Assembly: GCF_003018115.1 (NCBI RefSeq)
Contig: NZ_CP027457.1
DNA length: 64,000 nucleotides
Origin: Escherichia coli
GTDB taxonomy: Bacteria; Pseudomonadota; Gammaproteobacteria; Enterobacterales; Enterobacteriaceae
Direction: 5' to 3' (one strand)
Part shown: positions 1 to 14,002 of the stretch, in pieces
Layout: every line of letters begins with the position of its first letter
Position numbering within the stretch: the first letter of the stretch is position 1
The notes under the pieces: model-generated
The model's database searches: none
Seen by the model: only the letters and a program-made list of their open reading frames with translations
What the model was told of the DNA's origin: nothing
Position numbers and translations under genes: made by a program

Positions 1-1388
1 CAATGCGTTTCGAAGCTTACGGCTGGCACGTTATTCGCGACATCGACGGCCATGACGCAGCATCCATCAAACGCGCAGTTGAAGAAGCGCGCGCAGTGAC
101 TGACAAACCGTCCCTGCTGATGTGCAAAACCATCATCGGTTTCGGTTCCCCGAACAAAGCCGGTACCCACGACTCCCACGGTGCGCCGCTGGGCGACGCT
201 GAAATTGCCCTGACCCGCGAACAGCTGGGCTGGAAATACGCGCCGTTCGAAATCCCGTCTGAAATCTATGCGCAGTGGGATGCGAAAGAAGCAGGTCAGG
301 CGAAAGAATCTGCATGGAACGAGAAGTTTGCTGCTTACGCCAAAGCTTATCCGCAGGAAGCTGCTGAATTCACCCGTCGTATGAAAGGCGAAATGCCGTC
401 TGACTTCGACGCGAAAGCGAAAGAGTTCATTGCTAAACTGCAGGCTAATCCGGCGAAAATCGCCAGCCGTAAAGCGTCTCAGAATGCTATTGAAGCGTTC
501 GGCCCGTTGTTGCCGGAATTCCTCGGCGGCTCTGCTGACCTGGCACCGTCTAACCTGACCCTGTGGTCTGGTTCTAAAGCAATCAACGAAGATGCTGCGG
601 GTAACTACATCCACTACGGTGTTCGCGAGTTCGGTATGACCGCGATTGCTAACGGTATCTCCCTGCACGGTGGTTTCCTGCCGTACACCTCCACCTTCCT
701 GATGTTCGTGGAATACGCACGTAACGCCGTACGTATGGCTGCGCTGATGAAACAGCGTCAGGTGATGGTTTACACCCACGACTCCATCGGTCTGGGCGAA
801 GACGGCCCGACTCACCAGCCGGTTGAGCAGGTCGCTTCTCTGCGCGTGACCCCGAACATGTCTACATGGCGTCCGTGTGACCAGGTTGAATCCGCGGTCG
901 CGTGGAAATACGGTGTTGAGCGTCAGGACGGTCCGACCGCGCTGATCCTCTCCCGTCAGAACCTGGCGCAGCAGGAGCGTACTGAAGAGCAACTGGCAAA
1001 CATCGCGCGCGGTGGTTATGTGCTGAAAGACTGTGCTGGTCAGCCGGAACTGATCTTCATCGCCACCGGTTCTGAAGTTGAACTGGCGGTTGCTGCCTAC
1101 GAAAAACTGACTGCCGAAGGCGTGAAAGCGCGCGTGGTTTCCATGCCGTCTACCGACGCATTCGACAAGCAGGACGCGGCTTACCGTGAGTCTGTCCTGC
1201 CGAAAGCGGTTACTGCACGCGTTGCGGTGGAAGCGGGTATTGCTGACTACTGGTACAAGTATGTTGGCCTGAACGGTGCTATCGTCGGTATGACCACCTT
1301 CGGTGAATCTGCTCCGGCAGAGCAACTCTTTGAAGAGTTCGGCTTCACCGTTGACAACGTTGTTGCGAAAGCAAAAGAACTGCTGTAA
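1..1388 (+). CDS. tktA: transketolase 1, C-terminal 461 codons; 5-prime end lies upstream of the window
   Basis: ORF 3..1388 is open to the window edge; translation has the transketolase motif region ([12 protein letters not shown]) and C-terminal domain, matching E. coli TktA; hairpin terminator follows the stop. Confidence 0.95.
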
Positions 1389-1402
1389 TTAGCATTTTGG
1401 GT

Positions 1403-1430
1403 AAAAAGGTCGCTTCGGCGACCTTTTTTA
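1403..1430 (+). terminator. intrinsic terminator downstream of tktA
   Basis: GC stem aggtcgc/gcgacct with ttcg loop followed by a T-run. Confidence 0.7.
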
Positions 1431-1701
1431 TTACCTTGACATGTCCGTTTTCGGACGAGCAATAGATAAAGCGTGTTGTAGATCACAAATATTTATATGC
1501 AATAAATATCAATTATGTAATATGCATCACGATATGCGTGTTGACATTTGTTGTTATATCTATAACTCAATGTTATATAAGAAATTAATAATTCACTGTT
1601 TTCAAAACACCGGTTTCCCTGCTCAATTGCTTTCATTAAACCGCACGAGTATTTTATTTTTACCGCCGGACGGTACCCTAAAAATAAAATAAGGATAATT
1701 T

Positions 1702-2145
1702 ATGCGGCTTAGTGATTATTTTCCAGAATCATCAATCTCAGTTATACATTCAGCAAAAGATTGGCAGGAAGCTATCGATTTCTCGATGGTATCATTGCTG
1801 GATAAAAACTATATCAGCGAGAATTACATTCAGGCAATTAAAGATTCCACCATTAACAATGGCCCTTATTATATTCTCGCACCAGGCGTGGCAATGCCTC
1901 ATGCGCGACCGGAATGTGGGGCGCTTAAAACCGGGATGTCTTTGACATTACTTGAACAAGGTGTTTATTTTCCGGGGAATGACGAACCAATTAAATTACT
2001 CATCGGACTCTCTGCTGCCGATGCCGATTCGCACATTGGCGCTATTCAGGCGTTAAGTGAATTACTGTGCGAAGAAGAAATACTCGAACAACTCTTAACA
2101 GCATCATCAGAAAAACAATTAGCGGACATTATCAGCCGCGGATAA
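1702..2145 (+). CDS. cmtB: PTS enzyme IIA component, mannitol-type, cryptic (147 aa)
   Basis: ATG at 1702 preceded by aaggataa SD; length and sequence match recalled CmtB; lies directly upstream of an EIICB gene. Confidence 0.85.
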   Translation: MRLSDYFPESSISVIHSAKDWQEAIDFSMVSLLDKNYISENYIQAIKDSTINNGPYYILAPGVAMPHARPECGALKTGMSLTLLEQGVYFPGNDEPIKLLIGLSAADADSHIGAIQALSELLCEEEILEQLLTASSEKQLADIISRG

Positions 2146-2172
2146 TTACTCTCTCCTCTACAGGATAATATT

Positions 2173-3561
2173 ATGGAAAACAAGTCTGCTCGTGCAAAGG
2201 TCCAGGCTTTTGGGGGCTTTTTGACTGCAATGGTCATCCCCAATATTGGTGCTTTTATTGCCTGGGGTTTTATTACTGCGTTATTTATTCCCACCGGTTG
2301 GCTGCCTAACGAACATTTCGCCAAAATTGTCGGCCCGATGATTACCTATTTATTGCCCGTGATGATTGGTTCTACCGGTGGTCATCTGGTCGGCGGTAAA
2401 CGCGGCACGGTCATGGGCGGAATAGGTACTATTGGTGTGATCGTCGGCGCAGAGATCCCGATGTTCCTTGGCTCAATGATTATGGGGCCGCTCGGTGGGC
2501 TGGTCATAAAATATGTCGATAAGGCACTGGAAAAACGCATACCTGCTGGTTTTGAGATGGTTATCAATAACTTCTCATTAGGTATCGCGGGGATGCTCCT
2601 TTGCCTGCTGGGTTTTGAAGTGATCGGCCCGGCGGTGTTAATTGCCAATACTTTCGTCAAAGAGTGTATTGAGGCGCTGGTACATGCGGGTTATCTGCCT
2701 CTGCTGTCAGTCATCAATGAACCGGCGAAAGTGCTTTTCCTTAATAATGCGATCGATCAGGGCGTCTATTATCCGCTGGGAATGCAACAGGCTTCGGTTA
2801 ACGGTAAATCCATCTTCTTTATGGTGGCCTCTAACCCAGGTCCGGGCCTGGGGCTGCTGCTGGCGTTTACCTTGTTTGGTAAAGGGATGAGTAAACGTTC
2901 TGCGCCCGGGGCGATGATTATTCACTTCCTCGGTGGGATCCACGAACTGTATTTCCCATATGTGCTGATGAAGCCGCTGACTATTATTGCCATGATTGTG
3001 GGCGGTATGTCTGGCACCTGGATGTTTAACTTACTGGACGGTGGTCTGGTGGCTGGCCCAAGTCCGGGGTCTATCTTTGCTTACCTGGCGCTGACGCCGA
3101 AAGGTTCGTTCCTGGCGACAATTGCCGGTGTTACGGTAGGTACCCTGGTGTCCTTTGCTATCACTTCGCTGATACTGAAGATGGAAAAAACGGTGGAAAC
3201 GGAGAGCGAAGATGAGTTTGCTCAGTCAGCCAATGTGGTTAAGGCGATGAAACAAGAGGGTGCATTCTCGTTAAGCAGGGTTAAGCGTATCGCCTTTGTT
3301 TGCGATGCGGGGATGGGCTCCAGTGCGATGGGCGCGACCACCTTCCGTAAACGCCTGGAAAAAGCGGGGCTGGCAATTGAAGTAAAACATTACGCCATAG
3401 AAAACGTGCCTGCGGATGCGGATATCGTCGTTACTCATGCCAGTCTGGAAGGGCGCGTGAAACGTGTGACGGATAAACCACTGATATTGATTAATAACTA
3501 TATTGGCGATCCAAAACTCGACACTTTATTTAATCAATTAACCGCCGAACATAAACACTGA
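2173..3561 (+). CDS. cmtA: PTS enzyme IICB component, mannitol-type, cryptic (462 aa)
   Basis: Polytopic membrane protein with EIIC-like hydrophobic core and C-terminal EIIB-like domain (FVCDAGMGSS); length matches CmtA. Confidence 0.85.
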   Translation: MENKSARAKVQAFGGFLTAMVIPNIGAFIAWGFITALFIPTGWLPNEHFAKIVGPMITYLLPVMIGSTGGHLVGGKRGTVMGGIGTIGVIVGAEIPMFLGSMIMGPLGGLVIKYVDKALEKRIPAGFEMVINNFSLGIAGMLLCLLGFEVIGPAVLIANTFVKECIEALVHAGYLPLLSVINEPAKVLFLNNAIDQGVYYPLGMQQASVNGKSIFFMVASNPGPGLGLLLAFTLFGKGMSKRSAPGAMIIHFLGGIHELYFPYVLMKPLTIIAMIVGGMSGTWMFNLLDGGLVAGPSPGSIFAYLALTPKGSFLATIAGVTVGTLVSFAITSLILKMEKTVETESEDEFAQSANVVKAMKQEGAFSLSRVKRIAFVCDAGMGSSAMGATTFRKRLEKAGLAIEVKHYAIENVPADADIVVTHASLEGRVKRVTDKPLILINNYIGDPKLDTLFNQLTAEHKH

Positions 3562-3575
3562 TTACAGAGGTAAAA

Positions 3576-4853
3576 ATGAAAACCAAAGTTGCTGCTATTT
3601 ATGGCAAGCGGGATGTCCGTCTGCGCGAATTTGAACTACCAGAAATTACCGATAATGAATTACTGGTGAGTGTGATTTCTGACAGCGTCTGTTTATCCAC
3701 CTGGAAAGCGGCGTTACTCGGTAGTGAACATAAACGCGTACCCGACGATTTAGAAAATCATCCGGTCATTACCGGGCATGAATGTGCCGGGGTTATTGTC
3801 GAAGTGGGTAAAAATCTCACTGGCAAATATAAAAAAGGCCAGCGTTTTGTATTGCAACCGGCGATGGGATTACCAAGCGGATATTCAGCGGGCTACAGCT
3901 ACGAATATTTTGGCGGCAATGCCACTTATATGATTATTCCCGAAATCGCCATTAATTTGGGCTGCGTATTACCGTATCACGGCTCTTATTTTGCTGCGGC
4001 GTCGCTGGCAGAGCCTATGTGCTGCATTATTGGTGCTTATCATGCCAATTATCACACCACGCAATATGTTTATGAGCATCGCATGGGCGTCAAACCTGGC
4101 GGCAATATTGCGCTACTGGCGTGTGCAGGTCCGATGGGCATTGGCGCTATAGATTACGCCATTAACGGCGGCATACAACCGTCGCGGGTGGTGGTGGTCG
4201 ATATCGACGACACACGTCTGGCGCAGGTACAGAAGCTGCTGCCGGTGGAACTGGCGGCCAGTAAAGGCATTGAGCTGGTGTATGTGAATACCAAAGGGAT
4301 GAGCGATCCTGTCCAGATGCTGCGGGCGCTGACAGGAGATGCCGGGTTCGATGACATTTTTGTTTATGCGGCGGTGCCTGCTGTCGTTGAGATGGCTGAT
4401 GAATTACTGGCGGAAGATGGCTGTCTGAACTTCTTTGCCGGGCCGACGGATAAAAACTTCAAAGTGCCGTTTAATTTCTACAACGTTCATTACAACAGCA
4501 CGCACGTCGTCGGTACATCCGGCGGTTCAACGGACGACATGAAAGAGGCGATTGCCCTTAGCGCCACTGGGCAGTTACAGCCGTCGTTTATGGTGACCCA
4601 TATCGGTGGCCTGGATGCGGTGCCAGAAACCGTGCTCAATCTGCCGGATATCCCTGGCGGTAAAAAACTCATTTATAACGGCGTGACCATGCCGCTCACT
4701 GCCATTGCCGATTTTGCCGAAAAAGGCAAAACCGATCCGCTGTTTAAAGAGTTGGCGCGGCTGGTTGAGAAAACGCACGGCATCTGGAATGAACAGGCCG
4801 AGAAATATCTGCTGGCACAATTTGGCGTTGATATCGGGGAGGCCGCGCAATGA
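3576..4853 (+). CDS. yggP: putative zinc-binding medium-chain dehydrogenase (425 aa)
   Basis: GHECAGVIVEVG zinc-ADH-like motif and a Rossmann-like GPMGIGAID stretch; position between cmtA and yggF. Confidence 0.75.
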   Translation: MKTKVAAIYGKRDVRLREFELPEITDNELLVSVISDSVCLSTWKAALLGSEHKRVPDDLENHPVITGHECAGVIVEVGKNLTGKYKKGQRFVLQPAMGLPSGYSAGYSYEYFGGNATYMIIPEIAINLGCVLPYHGSYFAAASLAEPMCCIIGAYHANYHTTQYVYEHRMGVKPGGNIALLACAGPMGIGAIDYAINGGIQPSRVVVVDIDDTRLAQVQKLLPVELAASKGIELVYVNTKGMSDPVQMLRALTGDAGFDDIFVYAAVPAVVEMADELLAEDGCLNFFAGPTDKNFKVPFNFYNVHYNSTHVVGTSGGSTDDMKEAIALSATGQLQPSFMVTHIGGLDAVPETVLNLPDIPGGKKLIYNGVTMPLTAIADFAEKGKTDPLFKELARLVEKTHGIWNEQAEKYLLAQFGVDIGEAAQ

Positions 4854-5815
4854 TGTCCCTGGCGTGGCCATTATTTCGCGTTACGGAACAGGCAGCGTTG
4901 GCTGCCTGGCCGCAAACCGGATGTGGCGACAAAAATAAAATTGATGGCCTGGCGGTCACCGCGATGCGCCAGGCATTAAACGAAGTCGCTTTTCGTGGAC
5001 GAGTGGTTATCGGCGAAGGAGAAATTGACCATGCGCCGATGCTGTGGATTGGAGAAGAGGTGGGCAAAGGCGATGGGCCAGAAGTCGATATCGCGGTTGA
5101 TCCCATTGAAGGCACGCGGATGGTGGCGATGGGGCAGAGCAATGCGCTGGCGGTCATGGCTTTCGCCCCTCGAGATAGCCTGTTACATGCGCCCGATATG
5201 TATATGAAAAAGCTGGTTGTTAATCGACTGGCTGCCGGGGCGATTGATCTGTCTTTGCCTCTGGCGGACAACTTGCGTAACGTGGCGCGGGCGTTAGGTA
5301 AACCGCTGGACAAGCTGCGCATGGTTACGCTGGATAAACCGCGTCTGAGTGCCGCGATTGAAGAAGCAACACAGCTGGGCGTGAAGGTTTTTGCCCTGCC
5401 GGATGGCGATGTCGCCGCCAGCGTGCTGACCTGCTGGCAGGATAATCCTTACGATGTGATGTACACCATCGGCGGTGCGCCGGAAGGCGTGATTTCTGCC
5501 TGTGCCGTTAAAGCATTAGGCGGGGATATGCAGGCCGAGCTGATTGACTTTTGTCAGGCTAAAGGGGATTACACGGAAAATCGGCAGATTGCAGAGCAGG
5601 AGCGCAAGCGTTGCAAGGCAATGGGCGTTGACGTTAACCGTGTGTACTCGCTCGATGAACTGGTGAGGGGGAACGATATCCTCTTTAGCGCTACGGGCGT
5701 GACGGGCGGTGAGCTGGTGAACGGTATCCAACAGACGGCGAATGGGGTGCGGACGCAGACATTACTGATCGGCGGCGCGGACCAAACGTGTAATATAATA
5801 GACTCCCTGCATTGA
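4850..5815 (+). CDS. yggF: class II fructose-1,6-bisphosphatase paralogue, GlpX-like (321 aa)
   Basis: Start overlaps yggP stop as ATGA; sequence resembles GlpX-family FBPase; length matches YggF. Confidence 0.8.
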   Translation: MMSLAWPLFRVTEQAALAAWPQTGCGDKNKIDGLAVTAMRQALNEVAFRGRVVIGEGEIDHAPMLWIGEEVGKGDGPEVDIAVDPIEGTRMVAMGQSNALAVMAFAPRDSLLHAPDMYMKKLVVNRLAAGAIDLSLPLADNLRNVARALGKPLDKLRMVTLDKPRLSAAIEEATQLGVKVFALPDGDVAASVLTCWQDNPYDVMYTIGGAPEGVISACAVKALGGDMQAELIDFCQAKGDYTENRQIAEQERKRCKAMGVDVNRVYSLDELVRGNDILFSATGVTGGELVNGIQQTANGVRTQTLLIGGADQTCNIIDSLH

Positions 5816-5836
5816 TGGTGATCTATCGGAAGACCA

Positions 5837-6346
5837 ATGGCGACGCTGACAGAAGATGATGTGCTTGAGCAACTGGATGCACAGGACAATTTATTTTCAT
5901 TTATGAAAACGGCGCATTCTATTTTGCTCCAGGGGATACGCCAGTTTCTACCGTCGCTGTTTGTCGATAACGATGAAGAGATCGTCGAATATGCAGTGAA
6001 GCCGTTACTCGCCCAAAGCGGCCCGCTTGACGATATTGATGTTGCGCTGCGTTTGATTTATGCGCTGGGGAAAATGGATAAATGGCTGTACGCCGATATC
6101 ACGCACTTTTCCCAGTTCTGGCATTACCTGAACGAACAGGATGAAATGCCCGGATTTGCCGATGACATGACCTGGGATTTTATCAGCAACGTCAATAGCA
6201 TAACCCGCAATGCGACGCTCTATGACGCGTTGAAAGCGATGAAGTTCGCCGATTTCGCCGTCTGGTCAGAGGCGCGTTTTAGCGGGATGGTCAAAACGGC
6301 GCTGACGCTGGCAGTAACGACAACCTTAAAGGAATTAACGCCGTGA
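5837..6346 (+). CDS. yggD: MtlR-like small regulatory protein (169 aa)
   Basis: ATG at 5837; 169 aa; position and size match YggD. Confidence 0.75.
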   Translation: MATLTEDDVLEQLDAQDNLFSFMKTAHSILLQGIRQFLPSLFVDNDEEIVEYAVKPLLAQSGPLDDIDVALRLIYALGKMDKWLYADITHFSQFWHYLNEQDEMPGFADDMTWDFISNVNSITRNATLYDALKAMKFADFAVWSEARFSGMVKTALTLAVTTTLKELTP

Positions 6347-7056
6347 AAATTGAATTAACGGTGAATGGTCTGAAGGTACAGGCACAGTACCATGATGATG
6401 AGATAGAAAATGTACATAAACCGTTGCTGCGCATGTTGGCGGCCTTACAGACGGTAAATCCGCAGCGGCGTACGGTAGTTTTTCTTTGCGCTCCGCCGGG
6501 GACGGGGAAATCTACCCTAACCACCTTCTGGGAATATCTCGCACAACAAGACCCGGAACTACCCGCTATTCAGACGCTCCCGATGGATGGTTTTCACCAT
6601 TACAATAGCTGGCTGGATGCGCATCAATTGCGCCCCTTCAAAGGCGCACCAGAGACATTTGACGTTGCGAAACTGGCGGAAAATCTGCGCCAGGTAATGG
6701 AAGGGGATTGTACGTGGCCACAGTACGATCGACAAAAGCATGATCCTGTTGAAGATGCGTTGCACGTTACCGCACCACTCGTCATCGTCGAAGGAAACTG
6801 GTTGTTGCTGGACGACGAGAAGTGGTGCCAGCTTGCGCAATTTTGTGATTTCTCGATCTTTATCAACGCGCCAGCTACTGCGTTGCGGGAACGACTGGTG
6901 GGGCGCAAGCTGGCGGGAGGGTTATCGCTGGCAGACGCAGAAGCCTTTTATGACCGTACCGATGGGCCGAATGTTCGCCGGGTGCTGGAAGAGAGTCTGC
7001 CTGCACATTTGACCTTAATAATGACCGCTACGGGTGAATATCGTCTGGTGGATTAA
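6343..7056 (+). CDS. yggC: P-loop nucleoside/pantothenate-kinase-like protein (237 aa)
   Basis: GTG start overlapping yggD stop as GTGA; Walker A motif APPGTGKST; 3-prime end overlaps the convergent ATPase gene. Confidence 0.8.
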   Translation: MKIELTVNGLKVQAQYHDDEIENVHKPLLRMLAALQTVNPQRRTVVFLCAPPGTGKSTLTTFWEYLAQQDPELPAIQTLPMDGFHHYNSWLDAHQLRPFKGAPETFDVAKLAENLRQVMEGDCTWPQYDRQKHDPVEDALHVTAPLVIVEGNWLLLDDEKWCQLAQFCDFSIFINAPATALRERLVGRKLAGGLSLADAEAFYDRTDGPNVRRVLEESLPAHLTLIMTATGEYRLVD

Positions 7057-7705
7057 CGTTCCTGATTACACCATCTTCCAGTCGCACCACCCGAGAGAAA
7101 TGACGCCGGGTAAATGCGGCGTCATGACTGATTGCTACGACGCTCGTGCCTCGCTGGCGGCACTTTTCCAGCCAGCTTTCAAACACGCTCATCCAATTTT
7201 CGTCAAAATCCCGACTCGGCTCGTCCAGCAGCAATAGCGGCGGAGAGAGTGCTTCCAGGCAGGCGACGGCGACCATCCGTCGCTGCGCACTATGCAGATC
7301 TAACGGATGCGCGCTGGCAGTGTCTGCTAACTGACAGCATTGCAGGGCAGCATGGGTACGTTGAGTGATTTCATCCGCCGGGCATTTTTGCAGTTTCAAA
7401 CCAAATGCGATCTCGTCGGCGACGGTGCTGTGAAAAAGCTGGTTTTCCGCTTCCTGAAACAGTACGCCAATCTTTGCTGCACGTTGGCGGTTTTTCAGGT
7501 TTTTCATCGCCTGTTGTTGCAATATAACCGTACCGGTTGTGGGCGTAAGAAGACCTGCCATTACTCGTAACAGCGTCGATTTTCCCGCGCCATTGTCGCC
7601 GGTCAGCGCCAACCATTCACCTTGTTTGAGTTGCAGAGAAATGTCGCAAAGACAATCCGTTGCCGCGCCAGGCCAGCGATAAGTTATCTGATTTAACGTT
7701 AGCAT
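7028..7705 (-). CDS. ABC-type ATPase (225 aa) with a degenerate signature motif; putative EcfA-like subunit 2
   Basis: Walker A GDNGAGKST, Q-loop FQEAE, Walker B LLLLDEPS, H-loop ISHD, but signature is LHSAQ instead of LSGGQ; its ATG overlaps the stop of the upstream ATPase (ATGCTAA). Confidence 0.8.
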   Translation of the reverse strand: MLTLNQITYRWPGAATDCLCDISLQLKQGEWLALTGDNGAGKSTLLRVMAGLLTPTTGTVILQQQAMKNLKNRQRAAKIGVLFQEAENQLFHSTVADEIAFGLKLQKCPADEITQRTHAALQCCQLADTASAHPLDLHSAQRRMVAVACLEALSPPLLLLDEPSRDFDENWMSVFESWLEKCRQRGTSVVAISHDAAFTRRHFSRVVRLEDGVIRNVNPPDDIHP

Positions 7706-8376
7706 AGTGGCTGGAGCGCTCCGTTTTGCAATTGCCAGGCTTGCTGGCAGTAGTTCAGGAAAGGTGTGCGATGACGTTCAAAAAGAATAATCAGCGAACC
7801 ACGTTCAAGCGCCCAGTGTTGTAAGCGCTGCAACAGCATTTCGCTGGCCTGCGGCGTCAGGCGACTAAAGGCTTCATCAAGTATTAAGAGCTTTGGCTGC
7901 ATCGCGATGGCGCAGGCGATGACCACGCGCTGTGTCTCTCCACCGGAGAGTGTTGCCGGGTGACGATGGCGCAACGGCTGGCACTCGGTCAGAGTCAGGG
8001 CGGCATCAATCCGCGCCATAATCTCTTCTTCAGCAAGACACAGATTTTCTGGCCCAAAGGCAACTTCTTCTTCCACGCTAAAGGTACAGCCGGAGAGCTG
8101 CAAATAGGGCGATTGCTGAACGAGCTGGATGGTGGCGGATTGTTCATTAAGCGGGAGATGCCCAATGGGCGTACCGAGAAGCGTCCCCGTGCCGGTTATC
8201 TCTCCTGGCAGAAAGTCCGGATACCAGCCCGCCATCAGCTGTGCCAGCGTACTTTTGCCACTGCCGTTGTCACCAAAGATGGCGACCATCCCCGGTTTGA
8301 CATAGTGAAAGTCATAACAGAACGGAGGATGCGTTGAGTGTGTCGGGCAATAACGGAACTGTTCTAACGTAACCAT
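7699..8376 (-). CDS. ABC-type ATPase (225 aa from ATG 8376; alternative GTG start at 8382) with canonical motifs; putative EcfA-like subunit 1
   Basis: Walker A GDNGSGKST, Q-loop QQSP, signature LSGGETQRV, Walker B LLILDEA; GGAG SD 7 nt upstream of the 8376 ATG. Confidence 0.8.
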   Translation of the reverse strand: MVTLEQFRYCPTHSTHPPFCYDFHYVKPGMVAIFGDNGSGKSTLAQLMAGWYPDFLPGEITGTGTLLGTPIGHLPLNEQSATIQLVQQSPYLQLSGCTFSVEEEVAFGPENLCLAEEEIMARIDAALTLTECQPLRHRHPATLSGGETQRVVIACAIAMQPKLLILDEAFSRLTPQASEMLLQRLQHWALERGSLIILFERHRTPFLNYCQQAWQLQNGALQPLC

Positions 8377-9071
8377 ATCCACGCTCCGAATTCTGTCAGC
8401 ATCAGCAAGATCATGGTGTAACGCGCTACGCGTTGTAGGGTGCTATCGGCTGGTGCCCACAACGTTGTTCGTCGGTTGTGGATCCGAAATGCCCGCATAT
8501 CCAGCGCCGCACCACGGACAGCAAGATTGTTTAGCGCATTGTGTGTTAGCGGAATAATTAACGCGGGCATCGCACGTAAACGCTGATACCAGCCCTCATC
8601 CAGCGGCACGCCGCGGGCACGCTGCGCTTCATGAATAATCGCTAATTGCCGTTTTAACTGCTCAACGACCAATAACGGCCCGGCAAACAGATAAGCGACG
8701 CCTGGCGGCAGGCGAGAAGCAAACAGAGCGCGGATAAAACATTGCACGGGGACGTACTGCATCCACAACTGTGAGGTTGAAACAATCGCCAGAATCCGCA
8801 ACCAGAGCGTAATAGCATGCGTCCAACGCTCCGGCGAACGCGGCGTGCCGCTTAGCCATTCTGTTAGCCAGCCACCGTGTACCAGCCACAGCCCGGCTCC
8901 CAGCGAGAACATCAGCCAGACGACATATTTTGCCCGCCGCCGCGTGGCCTTTAGCGCAATAAGGCAGAAAAAGGTCGCCGCGCTATAGACTGGCAGTATT
9001 GTCTGTGTGGGCAGGATAAGCGTGGTGCAGGCCGCCAATGCCCATAGTGTTAATGAGGTAAATGGATGCAT
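8364..9071 (-). CDS. EcfT/CbiQ-like transmembrane component (235 aa)
   Basis: Polytopic hydrophobic protein containing an EAQRARGVPLD stretch resembling the CbiQ/EcfT coupling motif; its ATG directly abuts the stop of the upstream gene (TAAATG). Confidence 0.7.
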   Translation of the reverse strand: MHPFTSLTLWALAACTTLILPTQTILPVYSAATFFCLIALKATRRRAKYVVWLMFSLGAGLWLVHGGWLTEWLSGTPRSPERWTHAITLWLRILAIVSTSQLWMQYVPVQCFIRALFASRLPPGVAYLFAGPLLVVEQLKRQLAIIHEAQRARGVPLDEGWYQRLRAMPALIIPLTHNALNNLAVRGAALDMRAFRIHNRRTTLWAPADSTLQRVARYTMILLMLTEFGAWIWLR

Positions 9072-9650
9072 TTAGCGCACGGCAGCCATTGCCGGAAAAT
9101 GGCGCGTGGTGCGAATCGGCAGCTGGCGCAGTAAAAGCCAGACAATCACCGCTGTAAGAGTTTTATCGACCAGGTTCGCGCCTATCACCGTAATCGCCAC
9201 CGACTCCACCAGGTTTTGCCCCATCGAGTGCATCCAGGCAACGAACAAATCGGCTCCGCTACCGGTGACACCGCCGAACAGCGCAGTACGCAGCGGTACA
9301 GCGACGACCGTTACCGCAAGCGTAATAATCACGCCGCTGACAACGACTTTTGGCAGGGTGCGAAACCAACCCGCTCGCGCCAGCCAACCGGCGACCAGGC
9401 CGATGACCATCGCGACGGGTGCAAATGCGGCGGCGATCGGGTCGGTCAGCAATCCCCAGAGTAAATTGGTCAGTAAGCCGGTCAGCATTCCGATCACCGG
9501 ACCAAGCAGTACCGCGCTAATAAGTGTGCCGATGGAGTCGAGAAATATAGGTAATTTGACCATGCTGGCCAGTTGCCCGCCGATCATATTGATGGCGATA
9601 GATATAACGATCAACACCAGTGCCTGACTGGAAAAGTGGCTACGCGCCAT
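9072..9650 (-). CDS. ECF-transporter S-component-like small integral membrane protein (192 aa from ATG at 9650; ORF track extends to a TTG at 9749)
   Basis: About six predicted TM helices with an N-terminal FLDSIGT motif; GAGAGG SD upstream of the 9650 ATG. Confidence 0.6.
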   Translation of the reverse strand: MARSHFSSQALVLIVISIAINMIGGQLASMVKLPIFLDSIGTLISAVLLGPVIGMLTGLLTNLLWGLLTDPIAAAFAPVAMVIGLVAGWLARAGWFRTLPKVVVSGVIITLAVTVVAVPLRTALFGGVTGSGADLFVAWMHSMGQNLVESVAITVIGANLVDKTLTAVIVWLLLRQLPIRTTRHFPAMAAVR

Positions 9651-9672
9651 AAGAAAACCTCTCTGAAAGTAG

Positions 9673-10104
9673 TTATTTAACGGGGGAAATATGCAACTCG
9701 TCGTAACCAGAAAGCGCGCAAGGTTGGCGGCTAAACGCCAGTTCCTCAAGGCTACCGATCACCAGTTCAAGCGTGGTCCGCACGGTACAGCCGGGCATCA
9801 TATGACCGCCAAGCATCGTGCCGTGTGGATCGGAAACGCAGAGATGAAGATGCTCACCACTCTGTTCCAACGTGCCGTTTAGTGAGATCACTTCGAATGT
9901 ACCGTTCAGGAGCGTGGTGCCTTCTTGCCCGGCATAGCGCAAGGCGATGTCAGTCAGGCTACCGGTACAGCCTGCAATCCAGGCGGCATGAAGTTGCTGC
10001 TGCTGTGCAAAAGCGTGTAGCTGGGAAAAAACTTCCTGCCCGGGGAGGAGGCGCAGTGCGTAAAAGCGTGCGGAGGAAGAATATGGGTAGGGCAATGTCA
10101 TCAT
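9673..10104 (-). CDS. PPC-domain (DUF296) protein, function unknown (143 aa); first gene of the transporter operon
   Basis: 143-aa soluble protein with a His/Cys-rich stretch (HLHLCVSDPHGTMLGGHMMPGC) that I recognise as PPC/DUF296-like; GGAG SD upstream of ATG at 10104. Confidence 0.6.
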   Translation of the reverse strand: MMTLPYPYSSSARFYALRLLPGQEVFSQLHAFAQQQQLHAAWIAGCTGSLTDIALRYAGQEGTTLLNGTFEVISLNGTLEQSGEHLHLCVSDPHGTMLGGHMMPGCTVRTTLELVIGSLEELAFSRQPCALSGYDELHISPVK

Positions 10105-10475
10105 TGGAGTACTCCGAAACTCGGACGTATTGCGGATAATATCGACGCTGCATCAGTCATATTCTGATATAAGTCAGGGTTTGTGACGGCACAACGAAAA
10201 GATTTTGCTACGCTTATTCGTGATTCTGCAAAGTGGAATAAATTCCACAGGGGCGGGGCTGAAAACGTGACGTAAGTCAGATATTTGTTTTCTTTGACTG
10301 GACAATCATTCCTTTTATTCCACGTTTCGCTTATCCTAGCTGAAGCGTTTCAGTCGATTAAATGTTCGACAATTAACCAATCAGTCGCAGTTTGCGACAG
10401 GTAAGGTTTCCCCGGACGATTTGCTGGATTACTCTGTCTGGCAAATTTGCTCAGGGAAAACCTTGCAGGAGATCT

Positions 10476-11495
10476 ATGACCGTACGCGTAGCGATAAATG
10501 GCTTCGGTCGCATCGGGCGTAATGTGGTTCGTGCTTTGTATGAATCCGGACGCCGGGCGGAAATTACCGTGGTGGCAATCAACGAACTGGCGGATGCTGC
10601 GGGCATGGCGCATTTGTTGAAATATGACACCAGCCATGGCCGTTTTGCATGGGAAGTACGACAGGAACGCGATCAACTTTTTGTTGGTGATGACGCCATC
10701 CGCGTATTGCATGAACGTTCACTGCAATCGCTCCCCTGGCGTGAACTTGGCGTTGATGTAGTCCTCGACTGCACCGGCGTATATGGCTCCCGCGAGCATG
10801 GCGAAGCGCATATTGCCGCCGGGGCCAAAAAAGTGCTCTTTTCACATCCTGGCAGTAACGATCTCGACGCGACCGTTGTTTACGGCGTCAATCAGGATCA
10901 ACTTCGTGCGGAACACCGCATCGTTTCTAACGCTTCCTGTACCACGAATTGCATAATTCCCGTCATCAAATTGTTAGATGATGCGTACGGTATTGAGTCC
11001 GGCACTGTGACCACAATTCACTCCGCCATGCACGATCAACAGGTTATTGATGCATACCATCCTGACCTGCGTCGCACCCGGGCAGCCAGCCAGTCGATCA
11101 TTCCGGTCGATACTAAACTGGCCGCCGGTATCACACGATTTTTTCCGCAATTTAACGATCGCTTTGAAGCGATTGCGGTACGTGTGCCAACCATAAATGT
11201 GACGGCAATCGATTTAAGCGTGACGGTGAAGAAACCTGTAAAAGCCAATGAAGTCAACCTGTTGCTGCAAAAAGCAGCACAAGGTGCATTTCATGGTATA
11301 GTTGACTATACGGAATTGCCGTTGGTCTCTGTAGATTTTAACCACGATCCGCACAGTGCCATTGTCGATGGCACCCAAACCCGGGTCAGTGGCGCACACC
11401 TGATCAAAACGTTGGTCTGGTGCGATAACGAATGGGGCTTTGCTAACCGAATGCTCGACACGACGTTAGCTATGGCTACTGTTGCTTTCAGGTAA
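10476..11495 (+). CDS. epd: D-erythrose-4-phosphate dehydrogenase (339 aa)
   Basis: [16 protein letters not shown]-terminus and GAPDH-family fold with catalytic SNASCTTNC; true ATG at 10476 inside the longer TTG-initiated ORF. Confidence 0.95.
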
Positions 11496-11544
11496 GACGC
11501 AAGCAGCGTCTGCAAAACTTTTAGAATCAACGAGAGGATTCACC

Positions 11545-12708
11545 ATGTCTGTAAATAAGATGACCGATCTGGATCTTGCTGGGAAACGTGTATTTATCCG
11601 TGCGGATCTGAACGTACCAGTAAAAGACGGGAAAGTAACCAGCGACGCGCGTATCCGTGCTTCTCTGCCGACCATCGAACTGGCCCTGAAACAAGGCGCA
11701 AAAGTGATGGTAACTTCCCACCTGGGTCGTCCTACCGAAGGCGAGTACAACGAAGAATTCTCTCTGCTGCCGGTTGTTAACTACCTGAAAGACAAACTGT
11801 CTAACCCGGTTCGTCTGGTTAAAGATTACCTCGACGGCGTTGACGTTGCTGAAGGTGAACTGGTTGTTCTGGAAAACGTTCGCTTCAACAAAGGCGAGAA
11901 GAAAGACGACGAAACCCTGTCCAAAAAATACGCTGCACTGTGTGACGTGTTCGTAATGGACGCATTCGGTACTGCTCACCGCGCGCAGGCTTCTACTCAC
12001 GGTATCGGTAAATTCGCTGACGTTGCATGCGCAGGCCCGCTGCTGGCAGCTGAACTGGACGCGCTGGGTAAAGCACTGAAAGAACCTGCTCGCCCGATGG
12101 TGGCTATCGTTGGTGGTTCTAAAGTATCTACCAAACTGACCGTTCTGGACTCCCTGTCTAAAATCGCTGACCAGCTGATTGTTGGTGGTGGTATCGCTAA
12201 CACCTTTATCGCGGCACAAGGCCACGATGTGGGTAAATCCCTGTACGAAGCTGACCTGGTTGACGAAGCTAAACGTCTGCTGACCACCTGCAACATCCCG
12301 GTTCCGTCTGATGTTCGCGTAGCAACCGAGTTCTCTGAAACTGCACCGGCTACCCTGAAATCTGTTAACGATGTGAAAGCTGACGAGCAGATCCTGGATA
12401 TCGGTGATGCTTCCGCTCAGGAACTGGCTGAAATCCTGAAGAATGCGAAAACCATTCTGTGGAACGGTCCGGTTGGCGTGTTCGAATTCCCGAACTTCCG
12501 CAAAGGTACTGAAATCGTGGCTAACGCTATCGCAGACAGCGAAGCGTTCTCCATCGCTGGCGGCGGCGACACTCTGGCAGCAATCGACCTGTTCGGCATT
12601 GCTGACAAAATCTCCTACATCTCCACTGGCGGCGGCGCATTCCTCGAATTCGTGGAAGGTAAAGTACTGCCTGCAGTAGCGATGCTCGAAGAGCGCGCTA
12701 AGAAGTAA
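11545..12708 (+). CDS. pgk: phosphoglycerate kinase (387 aa)
   Basis: [26 protein letters not shown]-terminus; ATG 11545 with GAGAGGA SD. Confidence 0.95.
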
Positions 12709-12716
12709 AAAATCAC

Positions 12717-12745
12717 AGGGCAGGGAAACCTGCCCTTGTTTCAGC
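12717..12745 (+). terminator. stem-loop between pgk and fbaA; likely partial terminator or processing site
   Basis: 8-bp stem agggcagg/cctgccct with GAAA loop followed by a T-rich stretch. Confidence 0.45.
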
Positions 12746-12922
12746 GCGCTTTTAGAGCACGCATTTTTTCATACTCTAAATAATTCGAGTTGCAGGAAGG
12801 CGACAAGAGAGTGAATCCCCAGGAGCTTACATAAGTAAGTGACTGGGGTGAGCGAACGCAGACGCAGCACATGCAACTTGAAGTATGACGAGTATAAGGC
12901 CCGACGATACAGGACAAGAGAC

Positions 12923-14002
12923 ATGTCTAAGATTTTTGATTTCGTAAAACCTGGCGTAATCACTGGTGATGACGTACAGAAAGTTTTCCAGGTAGCAAAA
13001 GAAAACAACTTCGCACTGCCAGCAGTAAACTGCGTCGGTACTGACTCCATCAACGCCGTACTGGAAACCGCTGCTAAAGTTAAAGCGCCGGTTATCGTTC
13101 AGTTCTCCAACGGTGGTGCTTCCTTTATCGCTGGTAAAGGCGTGAAATCTGACGTTCCGCAGGGTGCTGCTATCCTGGGCGCGATCTCTGGTGCGCATCA
13201 CGTTCACCAGATGGCTGAACATTATGGTGTTCCGGTTATCCTGCACACTGACCACTGCGCGAAGAAACTGCTGCCGTGGATCGACGGTCTGCTGGACGCG
13301 GGTGAAAAACACTTCGCTGCTACCGGCAAGCCGCTGTTCTCTTCTCACATGATCGACCTGTCTGAAGAATCTCTGCAAGAGAACATCGAAATCTGCTCTA
13401 AATACCTGGAGCGCATGTCCAAAATCGGCATGACTCTGGAAATCGAACTGGGTTGCACCGGTGGTGAAGAAGACGGCGTGGACAACAGCCACATGGACGC
13501 TTCTGCACTGTACACCCAGCCGGAAGACGTTGATTACGCATACACCGAGCTGAGCAAAATCAGCCCGCGTTTCACCATCGCAGCGTCCTTCGGTAACGTA
13601 CACGGTGTTTACAAGCCGGGTAACGTTGTTCTGACTCCGACCATCCTGCGTGATTCTCAGGAATATGTTTCTAAGAAACACAACCTGCCGCACAACAGCC
13701 TGAACTTCGTATTCCACGGTGGTTCCGGTTCTACTGCTCAGGAAATCAAAGACTCCGTAAGCTACGGCGTAGTGAAAATGAACATCGATACCGATACCCA
13801 ATGGGCAACCTGGGAAGGCGTTCTGAACTACTACAAAGCGAACGAAGCTTATCTGCAGGGTCAGCTGGGTAACCCGAAAGGCGAAGATCAGCCGAACAAG
13901 AAATACTACGATCCGCGCGTATGGCTGCGTGCCGGTCAGACTTCGATGATCGCTCGTCTGGAAAAAGCATTCCAGGAACTGAACGCGATCGACGTTCTGT
14001 AA
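12923..14002 (+). CDS. fbaA: fructose-bisphosphate aldolase class II (359 aa)
   Basis: MSKIFDFVKPGVITGDD N-terminus; ATG at 12923. Confidence 0.95.
   Translation: MSKIFDFVKPGVITGDDVQKVFQVAKENNFALPAVNCVGTDSINAVLETAAKVKAPVIVQFSNGGASFIAGKGVKSDVPQGAAILGAISGAHHVHQMAEHYGVPVILHTDHCAKKLLPWIDGLLDAGEKHFAATGKPLFSSHMIDLSEESLQENIEICSKYLERMSKIGMTLEIELGCTGGEEDGVDNSHMDASALYTQPEDVDYAYTELSKISPRFTIAASFGNVHGVYKPGNVVLTPTILRDSQEYVSKKHNLPHNSLNFVFHGGSGSTAQEIKDSVSYGVVKMNIDTDTQWATWEGVLNYYKANEAYLQGQLGNPKGEDQPNKKYYDPRVWLRAGQTSMIARLEKAFQELNAIDVL

Follow-up and report, generated by a model that had tools for sequence, protein, structure and literature searches.

Comparative analyses of the cmtB-cmtA-yggP-yggF-yggD-yggC cluster in a 64,000-nucleotide (nt) stretch of an Escherichia coli chromosome (contig NZ_CP027457.1; the whole of this stretch is referred to here as the window) revealed that four of its proteins, the phosphotransferase system (PTS) components EIIA and EIICB, the dehydrogenase YggP and the kinase YggC, form a core conserved in Enterobacterales, Vibrionaceae and Clostridia. 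Because this core recurs in three distant lineages, we consider a dedicated uptake and catabolic route for a polyol to be the best reading of the cluster. Specifically, we propose that the six genes are one CRP-activated catabolic operon for a mannitol-like polyol imported by the PTS, a proposal to which we assign a probability of roughly 0.4.

The locus is the annotated cluster of K-12, where RefSeq has the identical six-gene annotation and yggD carries the name fumE, and is therefore already known. The long-standing view of it is that of a cryptic mannitol-like PTS accompanied by genes without an assigned role; the word "cryptic" has been attached to it for three decades, and it is one of the few nearly universal carbohydrate clusters of E. 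coli still without a substrate. No paper found in our searches of the full-text literature assigned it a substrate or pathway, several of the search words being swamped by unrelated terms. The locus itself will be no surprise to a specialist, but two real gaps in what is known of this best-studied of bacteria lie here, the YggC/FrcK kinase family and the YggP clade. What is new here is the narrowing of YggP to the SorE family, the definition of the four-gene core, the demotion of YggF to an accessory and a specific, testable pathway.

Conservation and layout of the cluster

A scan with a YggP alignment, in which one genome was taken per species, identified 80 loci, and these were subjected to a tblastn census. 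In the Enterobacterales (53 loci), cmtB, cmtA, yggD and yggC were found alongside yggP in 52, the exception being a 2.5-kb contig, and yggF was present in 47, being absent from five Rahnella species and Budvicia. All 17 loci from Vibrionaceae had the arrangement EIIA-EIICB-YggP-YggD-YggC, without yggF, and in each a YcdX-like PHP phosphoesterase (NF006702, 357 bits), whose substrate is only predicted, directly followed yggC. Nine of the ten Clostridia loci had the order EIIA-YggC-EIICB-YggP and the tenth starts inside the cluster; an HTH-PRD-EIIA regulator was nearby in eight, and YggD, YggF and the PHP protein were found in none of the ten. A pyrophosphate-dependent phosphofructokinase (PPi-PFK; NF010675, 483 bits) was beside the regulator in three of these loci, two of which are near-duplicates. 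YggC was linked to YggP in every complete locus.

These data define the conserved core as EIIA, EIICB, YggP and YggC, and place YggF outside it as an accessory. Regulators differ by lineage, with an MtlR-like protein in Gammaproteobacteria and a PRD-type one in Clostridia, and an enzyme interconverting fructose-1,6-bisphosphate (FBP) and fructose-6-phosphate appears to be a frequent accessory that has been drawn from non-homologous proteins (GlpX-type YggF, the PHP phosphoesterase and PPi-PFK). In Hafnia the complete six-gene cassette was located between menF and menD, and not beside tkt, indicating that it had moved as a unit. Together with the conserved order and tight spacing of the genes, the presence of the whole cassette at this other site supported the six genes behaving as one functional unit. 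A preliminary description, made from the sequence of this DNA, had suggested a complete uptake and catabolic route for a sugar alcohol or sugar phosphate yet to be named; with a polyol as substrate, this stands as the best reading as regards the PTS, YggP and YggC, with the qualification that YggF, a GlpX-type enzyme as that description had it, does not belong to the part that is conserved.

Positions 1389-7100 of the window matched E. coli strain F9792 at 100% identity and most other strains at 96-98%, and the locus was present at a coverage of at least 80% in 5387 of 5426 complete E. coli genomes (99%). The genes (Table 1) are intact and co-directional, and all six proteins are full length relative to K-12 and to orthologues from more than 50 species. 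The reading frames and coordinates, the ATGA overlap of yggP and yggF (4850-4853), the GTGA overlap of yggD and yggC (6343-6346) and the domain calls (EIIA_2, EIIC plus IIB, Zn-dependent medium-chain dehydrogenase/reductase (MDR), GlpX-type class II fructose-1,6-bisphosphatase (FBPase), MtlR and PRK09270 kinase), which we assigned with Pfam and NCBIfam models, all agreed with the preliminary description. The remaining gaps are short (cmtB-cmtA, 27 nt; cmtA-yggP, 14 nt; yggF-yggD, 21 nt), and a consensus scan detected no terminator-like site in any intergenic gap of the cluster. With their shared direction, overlaps or short gaps, lack of an internal terminator and conserved order, the genes have the features of a single operon, and we infer that they are co-transcribed.

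The ratio of non-synonymous to synonymous substitution rates (dN/dS) was 0.02-0.23 for each of the six genes in comparisons with K-12, E. albertii, Citrobacter, Klebsiella, Buttiauxella and Hafnia. These values, together with the presence of the locus in almost all E. coli genomes, indicated that the six are real genes and not chance open reading frames (ORFs). As they were also comparable to those of tktA in the same comparison (0.01-0.08), "cryptic" here means that the inducer is unknown, and not that the locus is decaying.

Table 1. Genes and regulatory features of the cmtBA-yggPFDC region of the window.
Feature	Position	Strand	Length	Description
cmtB	1702-2145	+	147 aa	PTS EIIA, mannitol/fructose class
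cmtA	2173-3561	+	462 aa	PTS EIICB, mannitol subfamily
yggP	3576-4853	+	425 aa	Predicted SorE-family Zn-dependent polyol-phosphate/ketose-1-phosphate oxidoreductase
yggF	4850-5815	+	321 aa	Class II (GlpX-type) FBPase paralogue; accessory
yggD (annotated fumE)	5837-6346	+	169 aa	MtlR-family protein; presumed regulatory partner
yggC	6343-7056	+	237 aa	P-loop kinase, PRK09270/FrcK (PanK/Udk/PRK-like) family; core member
tktA intrinsic terminator	1399-1436	+		Hairpin GGTCGC-TTCG-GCGACC followed by T-run; upstream boundary of cluster
CRP-like site 1, CGTGTTGTAGATCACA	1472-1487	+		Right half-site ATCACA conserved in about 15 Enterobacterales genera
CRP-like site 2, TGTAATATGCATCACG	1516-1531	+		44 bp downstream of site 1; TTTG-N8-ATCAC conserved across genera
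Promoter-like block	1627-1655	+		TTGCTT-17 nt-TATTTT; best-conserved stretch of leader in 21-species alignment
Inverted repeat	1661-1675	+		TACCG-N5-CGGTA; between promoter-like block and ribosome-binding site; candidate operator
Intragenic sigma-54-type site, CTGGCGGCAATATTGCG	4096-4112	+		Inside yggP; 1 mismatch to K-12 site IS35

Internal transcript starts are possible within the cluster. The intragenic sigma-54-type site in yggP has a counterpart in K-12, the intragenic site IS35, which was mapped 744 bp upstream of yggF (PMC4591121). In addition, the sigma-70 consensus was matched best in this region at 1942-1971 on the + strand, inside cmtB (TTGACA-18-TATTTT, 10/12); either chance or an internal promoter driving cmtA could account for it.

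Identity of the encoded proteins

YggP, which had been described as zinc-dehydrogenase-like, is indeed a Zn-dependent MDR enzyme (ADH_N and ADH_zinc_N domains), and it can be placed more narrowly in the SorE family. It aligned end to end with SorE of Klebsiella pneumoniae (46% identity over 417 aa, E = 2e-132), whose gene is part of a canonical sorCDFBAME operon with sorC, sorD and sorFBAM on its flanks, and was 43% identical to the matching enzyme of a Lactiplantibacillus sorbose operon. Residues C39, H68 and E69 and the segment A184-G185-P186-M187-G188 were invariant in nine diverse YggP sequences and aligned with those of SorE, so that both the Zn ligands and the GxGxxG nucleotide-binding fold are retained. 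The mannose-class sorbose PTS and SorD that characterize the sor context were not found with YggP; instead, 80 of 80 loci have a mannitol-class PTS and YggC. For this reason YggP is a paralogue of SorE that should not be named sorbose-1-phosphate reductase. SorE reduces L-sorbose-1-phosphate to D-sorbitol-6-phosphate (PMC12817954) and therefore works on the carbon adjoining the phosphate ester. The family membership of YggP points to the chemistry of a ketose-1-phosphate/alditol-phosphate pair, an activity suggested for YggP itself by its gene context. A sequence search of the PDB found no close solved relative of YggP, the best matches being sorbitol/ketose reductases at 39 bits.

The SorE/YggP family is small, comprising 220 clusters at E ≤ 1e-30 (HMMER, 1.84 billion representatives), and the surroundings of its distant full-length members all seem to point to ketose-1-phosphate chemistry. 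A YggP-like gene is followed by a rhamnulokinase-like FGGY kinase in locus L094 (52% identical), adjoins a fusion of RhaD-type class II aldolase and SDR in L093 (56% identical), and in L098 (47% identical) lies between an FGGY kinase and a Mannitol_dh-family enzyme, near an ABC sugar transporter. The operon in L095 encodes an mtlA-subfamily EIICB (629 bits), an EIIA, a YggP-like protein (48% identical), a PfkB kinase, HPr, Enzyme I and a regulator. The best matches of this PfkB kinase were to 1-phosphofructokinase (1-PFK) and hexose-kinase models, at scores below their curated cut-offs, and its position in the slot of YggC looks like a non-orthologous displacement by a ketose-phosphate kinase. 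Directly upstream of the YggP-like gene of L093, a 425-aa protein (6727-8004) with no Pfam match had a weak match (28 bits) to a model of PHP-type 3',5'-nucleoside bisphosphate phosphatases, and may be another phosphatase partner.

YggC belongs to the family modelled by NF006742 (520 bits against a cut-off of 402) and has the Walker A motif PPGTGKST. Its nearest PDB entry was 3C8U (83 bits), a FrcK-type protein deposited as "fructokinase", followed by pantothenate kinases (41 bits). A SEED-based study of 2011 predicted YggC to be a "sugar/polyol kinase" (PMC3223725), and no member of the YggC/FrcK family has a defined substrate (PMC10433430).

The PTS proteins retain the residues of the phosphorelay. 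In CmtB (PF00359, EIIA_2; equivalog NF007358, 326 bits) the phosphorylatable His lies in the motif AMPHA, which aligned with AVPHG of MtlA, and in CmtA (PF02378 and PF02302, EIIC and IIB) the Cys motif CDAGMGSS of the IIB domain aligned with the Cys384 motif of MtlA. CmtA fell within the mtlA subfamily, although barely, with 480 bits against a cut-off of 468 for TIGR00851 and 590.6 against 589 for NF011663. Its annotation as "mannitol-specific" reflects similarity, and we found no transport data for CmtAB in the literature searched.

YggF is a class II FBPase by sequence (TIGR00330, 586 bits against a cut-off of 259). It was 58.5% identical to E. coli GlpX and had all of its motif blocks (GEGEID, DIAVDPIEGT, PDMYM, KPR, PDGDVAAS and GGAPEGV). 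K-12 YggF, to which the protein of the window was 99% identical, is credited with FBPase activity in vitro (Brown et al. 2009, as cited in PMC8719807). In strain CFT073 yggF has lost an internal stretch, and the annotation splits the gene into two fragments (L091, 4727-5042), the other five genes being intact, which fits a dispensable yggF. YggD is an MtlR-domain protein (PF05068, 179 bits; PDB 3C8G, 364 bits), and its position and family suggest a regulatory role.

The proposed pathway and its alternatives

In the pathway we propose, the most economical one in view of these results, CmtB and CmtA would import the polyol and phosphorylate its terminal hydroxyl, yielding a polyol-1-phosphate. 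YggP, running the SorE reaction in reverse, would oxidize the carbon beside the phosphate to give a ketose-1-phosphate, and YggC would phosphorylate the other end, forming a ketose-1,6-bisphosphate, most probably FBP, which a housekeeping aldolase would split. YggF would be an accessory 1-phosphatase, diverting some of the bisphosphate into a 6-phosphate that can serve biosynthesis, like glpX in the glycerol operon glpFKX, where GlpX is thought to supply hexose-6-phosphate; the PHP enzyme or PPi-PFK in its place could likewise supply hexose-6-phosphate when carbon enters at the level of FBP. YggD would act as an MtlR-like regulatory partner. Gene content, homologies, conserved linkage, purifying selection and conserved CRP-type elements in the leader are shown by the data; which carbon YggP oxidizes, what YggC phosphorylates, the way the flux runs and the sugar itself we infer. 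Since the Clostridial operons consist of the four core genes and a PRD regulator, the three steps of uptake, oxidation and phosphorylation must reach a central metabolite. FBP is the obvious candidate, as it would fit the FBPase activity of YggF, the PPi-PFK neighbours in Clostridia and the proximity of fbaA in E. coli (three genes downstream of the cluster in K-12).

Several points weigh against this pathway. In the literature that we could reach, neither YggP nor YggC has been examined biochemically or genetically, SorE itself runs reductively, and YggP, being 46% identical to SorE, may have a different regiochemistry. FrcK of Sinorhizobium meliloti, the sole studied relative of YggC, is not the fructokinase, has an undefined substrate and was proposed to have a role in the control of transport (PMC10433430), and the PfkB kinase of L095 scored below the curated cut-offs for 1-PFK. 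Unless regulated, the pairing of a kinase with a bisphosphatase within an operon could lead to futile cycling. YggD, which may be called a "regulator" only on the strength of its position and family, carries a fumarase E annotation, and ChIP-exo experiments detected no binding of it to DNA (PMC8464067). Lastly, a pentose-phosphate pathway product would suit the recurrent transketolase neighbours no less well than FBP. A tkt gene or tal-tkt pair was directly upstream in Enterobacteriaceae and in four Vibrionaceae loci (tal-tkt in L063, L065, L077 and L089); in V. mediterranei (L081) tkt (11369-13372) started 16 nt after the PHP gene, and in Anaerotalea (L078) a split transketolase (9662-11427) was downstream of the cluster. 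These differing arrangements may hint at a link to that pathway.

It is very unlikely, in our estimation, that the polyol is a C7 (or C5) compound processed by unchanged chemistry, i.e., from heptitol-1-phosphate via sedoheptulose-1-phosphate to sedoheptulose-1,7-bisphosphate, which YggF or the PHP enzyme would convert to sedoheptulose-7-phosphate for transketolase and transaldolase, or aldolase would cleave to dihydroxyacetone phosphate and erythrose-4-phosphate. Transketolase genes adjoin the cluster in at least three arrangements, epd and fbaA follow it in E. coli, and class II FBPases include enzymes that are also sedoheptulose-1,7-bisphosphatases (SBPases), with PDB entries 3ROJ and 5A5L among the matches. 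However, the tkt-cmtB adjacency in enterics and vibrios may be one inherited arrangement, tktA in the window is a housekeeping gene, the PPi-PFK neighbours in Clostridia point to FBP and fructose-6-phosphate, the activity reported for YggF in PMC8719807 is that of an FBPase, and there is no evidence for heptitol acceptance by a mannitol-type EIIC. A Sor-like reductive scheme is somewhat less improbable, although still quite unlikely: CmtAB would import a ketose with phosphorylation at C1, YggP would form a hexitol phosphate from it, and a housekeeping dehydrogenase, MtlD or SrlD, would yield fructose-6-phosphate, with YggC and YggF not being pathway enzymes. The 46% identity to the reductive SorE is in keeping with this, as is the L098 locus, in which the FGGY kinase, YggP-like protein and Mannitol_dh-family enzyme would suit a scheme of two dehydrogenases. 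Against it, CmtA is in the mannitol (polyol) subfamily and not in the fructose or sorbose classes, a second dehydrogenase was present in 0 of the 80 loci, and neither the invariable link of YggC nor its replacement by a 1-PFK-like PfkB kinase would be explained.

The role proposed for FrcK in modulating transport, and the failure to find a sugar substrate for it (PMC10433430), raise the possibility that YggC is a regulatory kinase acting on the transporter or on YggD; YggP alone would then produce an ordinary ketose-6-phosphate, like MtlD, and YggF would be an independent gluconeogenic isozyme. The 4-nt overlap of yggD and yggC in the window, and their adjacency in all loci from Gammaproteobacteria, are compatible with such a role, but in Clostridia YggC is encoded between EIIA and EIICB with no YggD, a metabolic PfkB kinase fills the kinase slot in L095, and the wider SorE/YggP family is tied to enzymes of ketose-1-phosphates, and we regard a regulatory YggC as unlikely. 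There is only the slightest chance that the locus is a cryptic remnant of decaying or separately transcribed genes with no common function. This would be in line with its historical "cryptic" label, the unrelated fumarase E annotation of YggD, the deletion in CFT073 yggF, and the sigma-54 site and promoter-like match inside the cluster. Strong purifying selection on all six genes, synteny in three lineages, relocation of the cassette as a unit, occurrence in 99% of E. coli genomes and a conserved regulatory leader all speak to the contrary, and that the genes are functionally unrelated is essentially excluded.

The polyol operon that we propose resembles known systems in part. Relative to mtlADR of E. 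coli, CmtA was 53% identical to the IIC-IIB part of MtlA, CmtB matched the IIA domain of MtlA (28% identical), YggD was 36% identical to MtlR, both loci have CRP-type control, and the two clusters are side by side in Rahnella. In contrast to mtlADR, the cmt cluster encodes EIIA as a protein of its own, its dehydrogenase is an MDR of the SorE family and not of the MtlD family, a P-loop kinase is always and a bisphosphatase often present, and mannitol is only a presumed substrate. YggP and SorE have in common their Zn-ligand and Rossmann motifs and a C-terminal extension of about 60 residues, whereas the sor operon has a mannose-class PTS and SorD, lacks a kinase and is reductive, YggP being a paralogue in another conserved context. 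The conversion of a PTS-derived ketose-1-phosphate to a 1,6-bisphosphate, as proposed here, would parallel fruBKA, and the FruK-like PfkB kinase of L095 does lie beside a YggP-like gene; YggC, however, is a P-loop kinase (PanK/Udk/PRK-like) and not a PfkB protein, and its ketose-1-phosphate would come from oxidation of a polyol phosphate. With glpFKX the cluster shares a GlpX-type FBPase within a catabolic operon whose product enters glycolysis below fructose-6-phosphate, but the other uptake and catabolic enzymes differ and YggF is dispensable in many lineages. Finally, FrcK of the S. meliloti frcBCAK operon is in one P-loop kinase family with YggC and has been linked to fructose and polyol uptake (PMC10433430), although it is partnered with an ABC transporter, not a PTS, there is no YggP, and its own substrate is likewise undefined.

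The cluster may represent a previously undescribed polyol route, in which a SorE-type polyol-phosphate 2-dehydrogenase (YggP) and a PanK/PRK-like kinase (YggC) take an alditol-1-phosphate made by the PTS to a ketose-1,omega-bisphosphate, bypassing phosphofructokinase; we put this forward tentatively, as the odds are clearly against it. In its boldest version, a C7 polyol of the volemitol or perseitol type would be converted to sedoheptulose-1,7-bisphosphate, which would explain the tkt and tal neighbours and the GlpX-type (FBP/SBPase) or PHP phosphatase partner. Should the proposed function of the cluster be correct, it would give the YggC/FrcK kinases, present in rhizobia and plants as well, their first biochemical function, correct the automatically assigned label "sorbose-1-phosphate reductase" and possibly "fumarase E", explain why E. 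coli keeps a third GlpX-type FBPase, and add a phosphofructokinase-independent entry to glycolysis to metabolic models.

Leader region and neighbouring genes

The cluster has a conserved leader with the features of a CRP-type regulated promoter region. The upstream gene tktA, which ends at 1388, has a strong intrinsic terminator behind it (minimum free energy -19.1 kcal/mol, z = -4.6 relative to shuffled sequences), and the cluster must therefore have its own promoter. The long AT-rich leader noted in the preliminary description (1431-1701) had a GC content of 0.317, compared with 0.518 for the whole window, and was among the lowest 0.26% of all 271-nt segments. In an alignment of the leader from 21 Enterobacterales species, the conserved elements were two CRP-like sites and a promoter-like block that we interpret as the core promoter, these three being shared by about 15 genera, the inverted repeat and the Shine-Dalgarno sequence. 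CRP-like site 1 is a perfect TGTGA-N6-TCACA in Salmonella enterica arizonae and Limnobaculum. Taken over its full length, the window showed no enrichment in matches to the CRP pattern (32, with 27 expected), and hence the argument for CRP rests on conservation across genera and on the published data of CRP binding and lower cmtB promoter activity in a crp mutant (PMC3105977). Both agree with the "tightly regulated" promoter that had been suggested for this leader. For the other suggestion, a silenced promoter, we came upon no support, although no test aimed at H-NS-type proteins was made.

The inverted repeat at 1661-1675 was retained in Escherichia, Superficieibacter and an Enterobacteriaceae metagenome-assembled genome, and partly in Citrobacter and Klebsiella. 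As there was no clear covariation, a protein-binding site seems likelier here than an RNA hairpin, and an Rfam search of 1300-10500 identified no RNA family at E ≤ 1, i.e., no known leader RNA or riboswitch. A scan for consensus promoters and terminators gave sites no more numerous than in shuffled sequence and missed both the tktA terminator and the block at 1627-1655; it was not used as evidence. The main text of a paper on RpoD constitutive promoters does not mention cmtB. An 83-aa ORF in the leader (1441-1692) was rejected as a gene since it is not conserved as coding sequence and is replaced in B2 strains. In these strains (ST131 and CFT073), a divergent SPFH/Band 7 (prohibitin-family) gene occupies the tkt-cmtB spacer (L090, 297-1205; L091, 294-1202), where the insertion replaces the distal leader of the window and K-12; both CRP-like blocks persist.

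Candidate genes beside clusters in other species were also considered. A 304-aa protein of Lacrimispora, tried as a new enzyme, proved to be the C-terminal half of a split PRD regulator, and a 606-aa ORF after yggP in Anaerotalea, tried as a transketolase, is PTS Enzyme I. Judged by its sequence, the 265-aa ORF that follows yggC in Rahnella resembles secreted thiol-disulfide proteins of the Dsb type, and it probably has no connection with the cluster. In all five Rahnella loci (L054-L058), which have no yggF in the cluster, an MtlA-type EIICBA was encoded 1.4-4 kb downstream, and in four of them (L054, L055, L056 and L058) a second MtlR-like gene followed it, making a complete mtlADR operon likely.

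In the window, an island of five genes encoding an energy-coupling factor (ECF) transporter (7028-10104, - strand) lies between yggC and epd. It comprises two ABC ATPases, an ECF T component, an ECF S component of unassigned specificity and a PCC/PPC-domain DNA-binding protein, is absent from K-12 and was present in 3319 of the 5426 complete E. coli genomes. Buttiauxella has a five-gene block of the same sizes and orientation between tkt and cmtB, its two ATPases being related to those of the window, and the succession of yggC and an ATPase gene seen in the window also occurs in Salmonella arizonae. The end of the convergent ABC ATPase gene of the island overlaps yggC by 29 nt. Between the window and K-12, YggC was 84% identical in amino acid sequence with a synonymous divergence (dS) of 0.49, compared with dS values of 0.03-0.12 for cmtA to yggD, and the differences were concentrated in the C-terminal third, the last ~75 codons. 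This divergence looks like a recombination breakpoint tied to the presence or absence of the ECF island.

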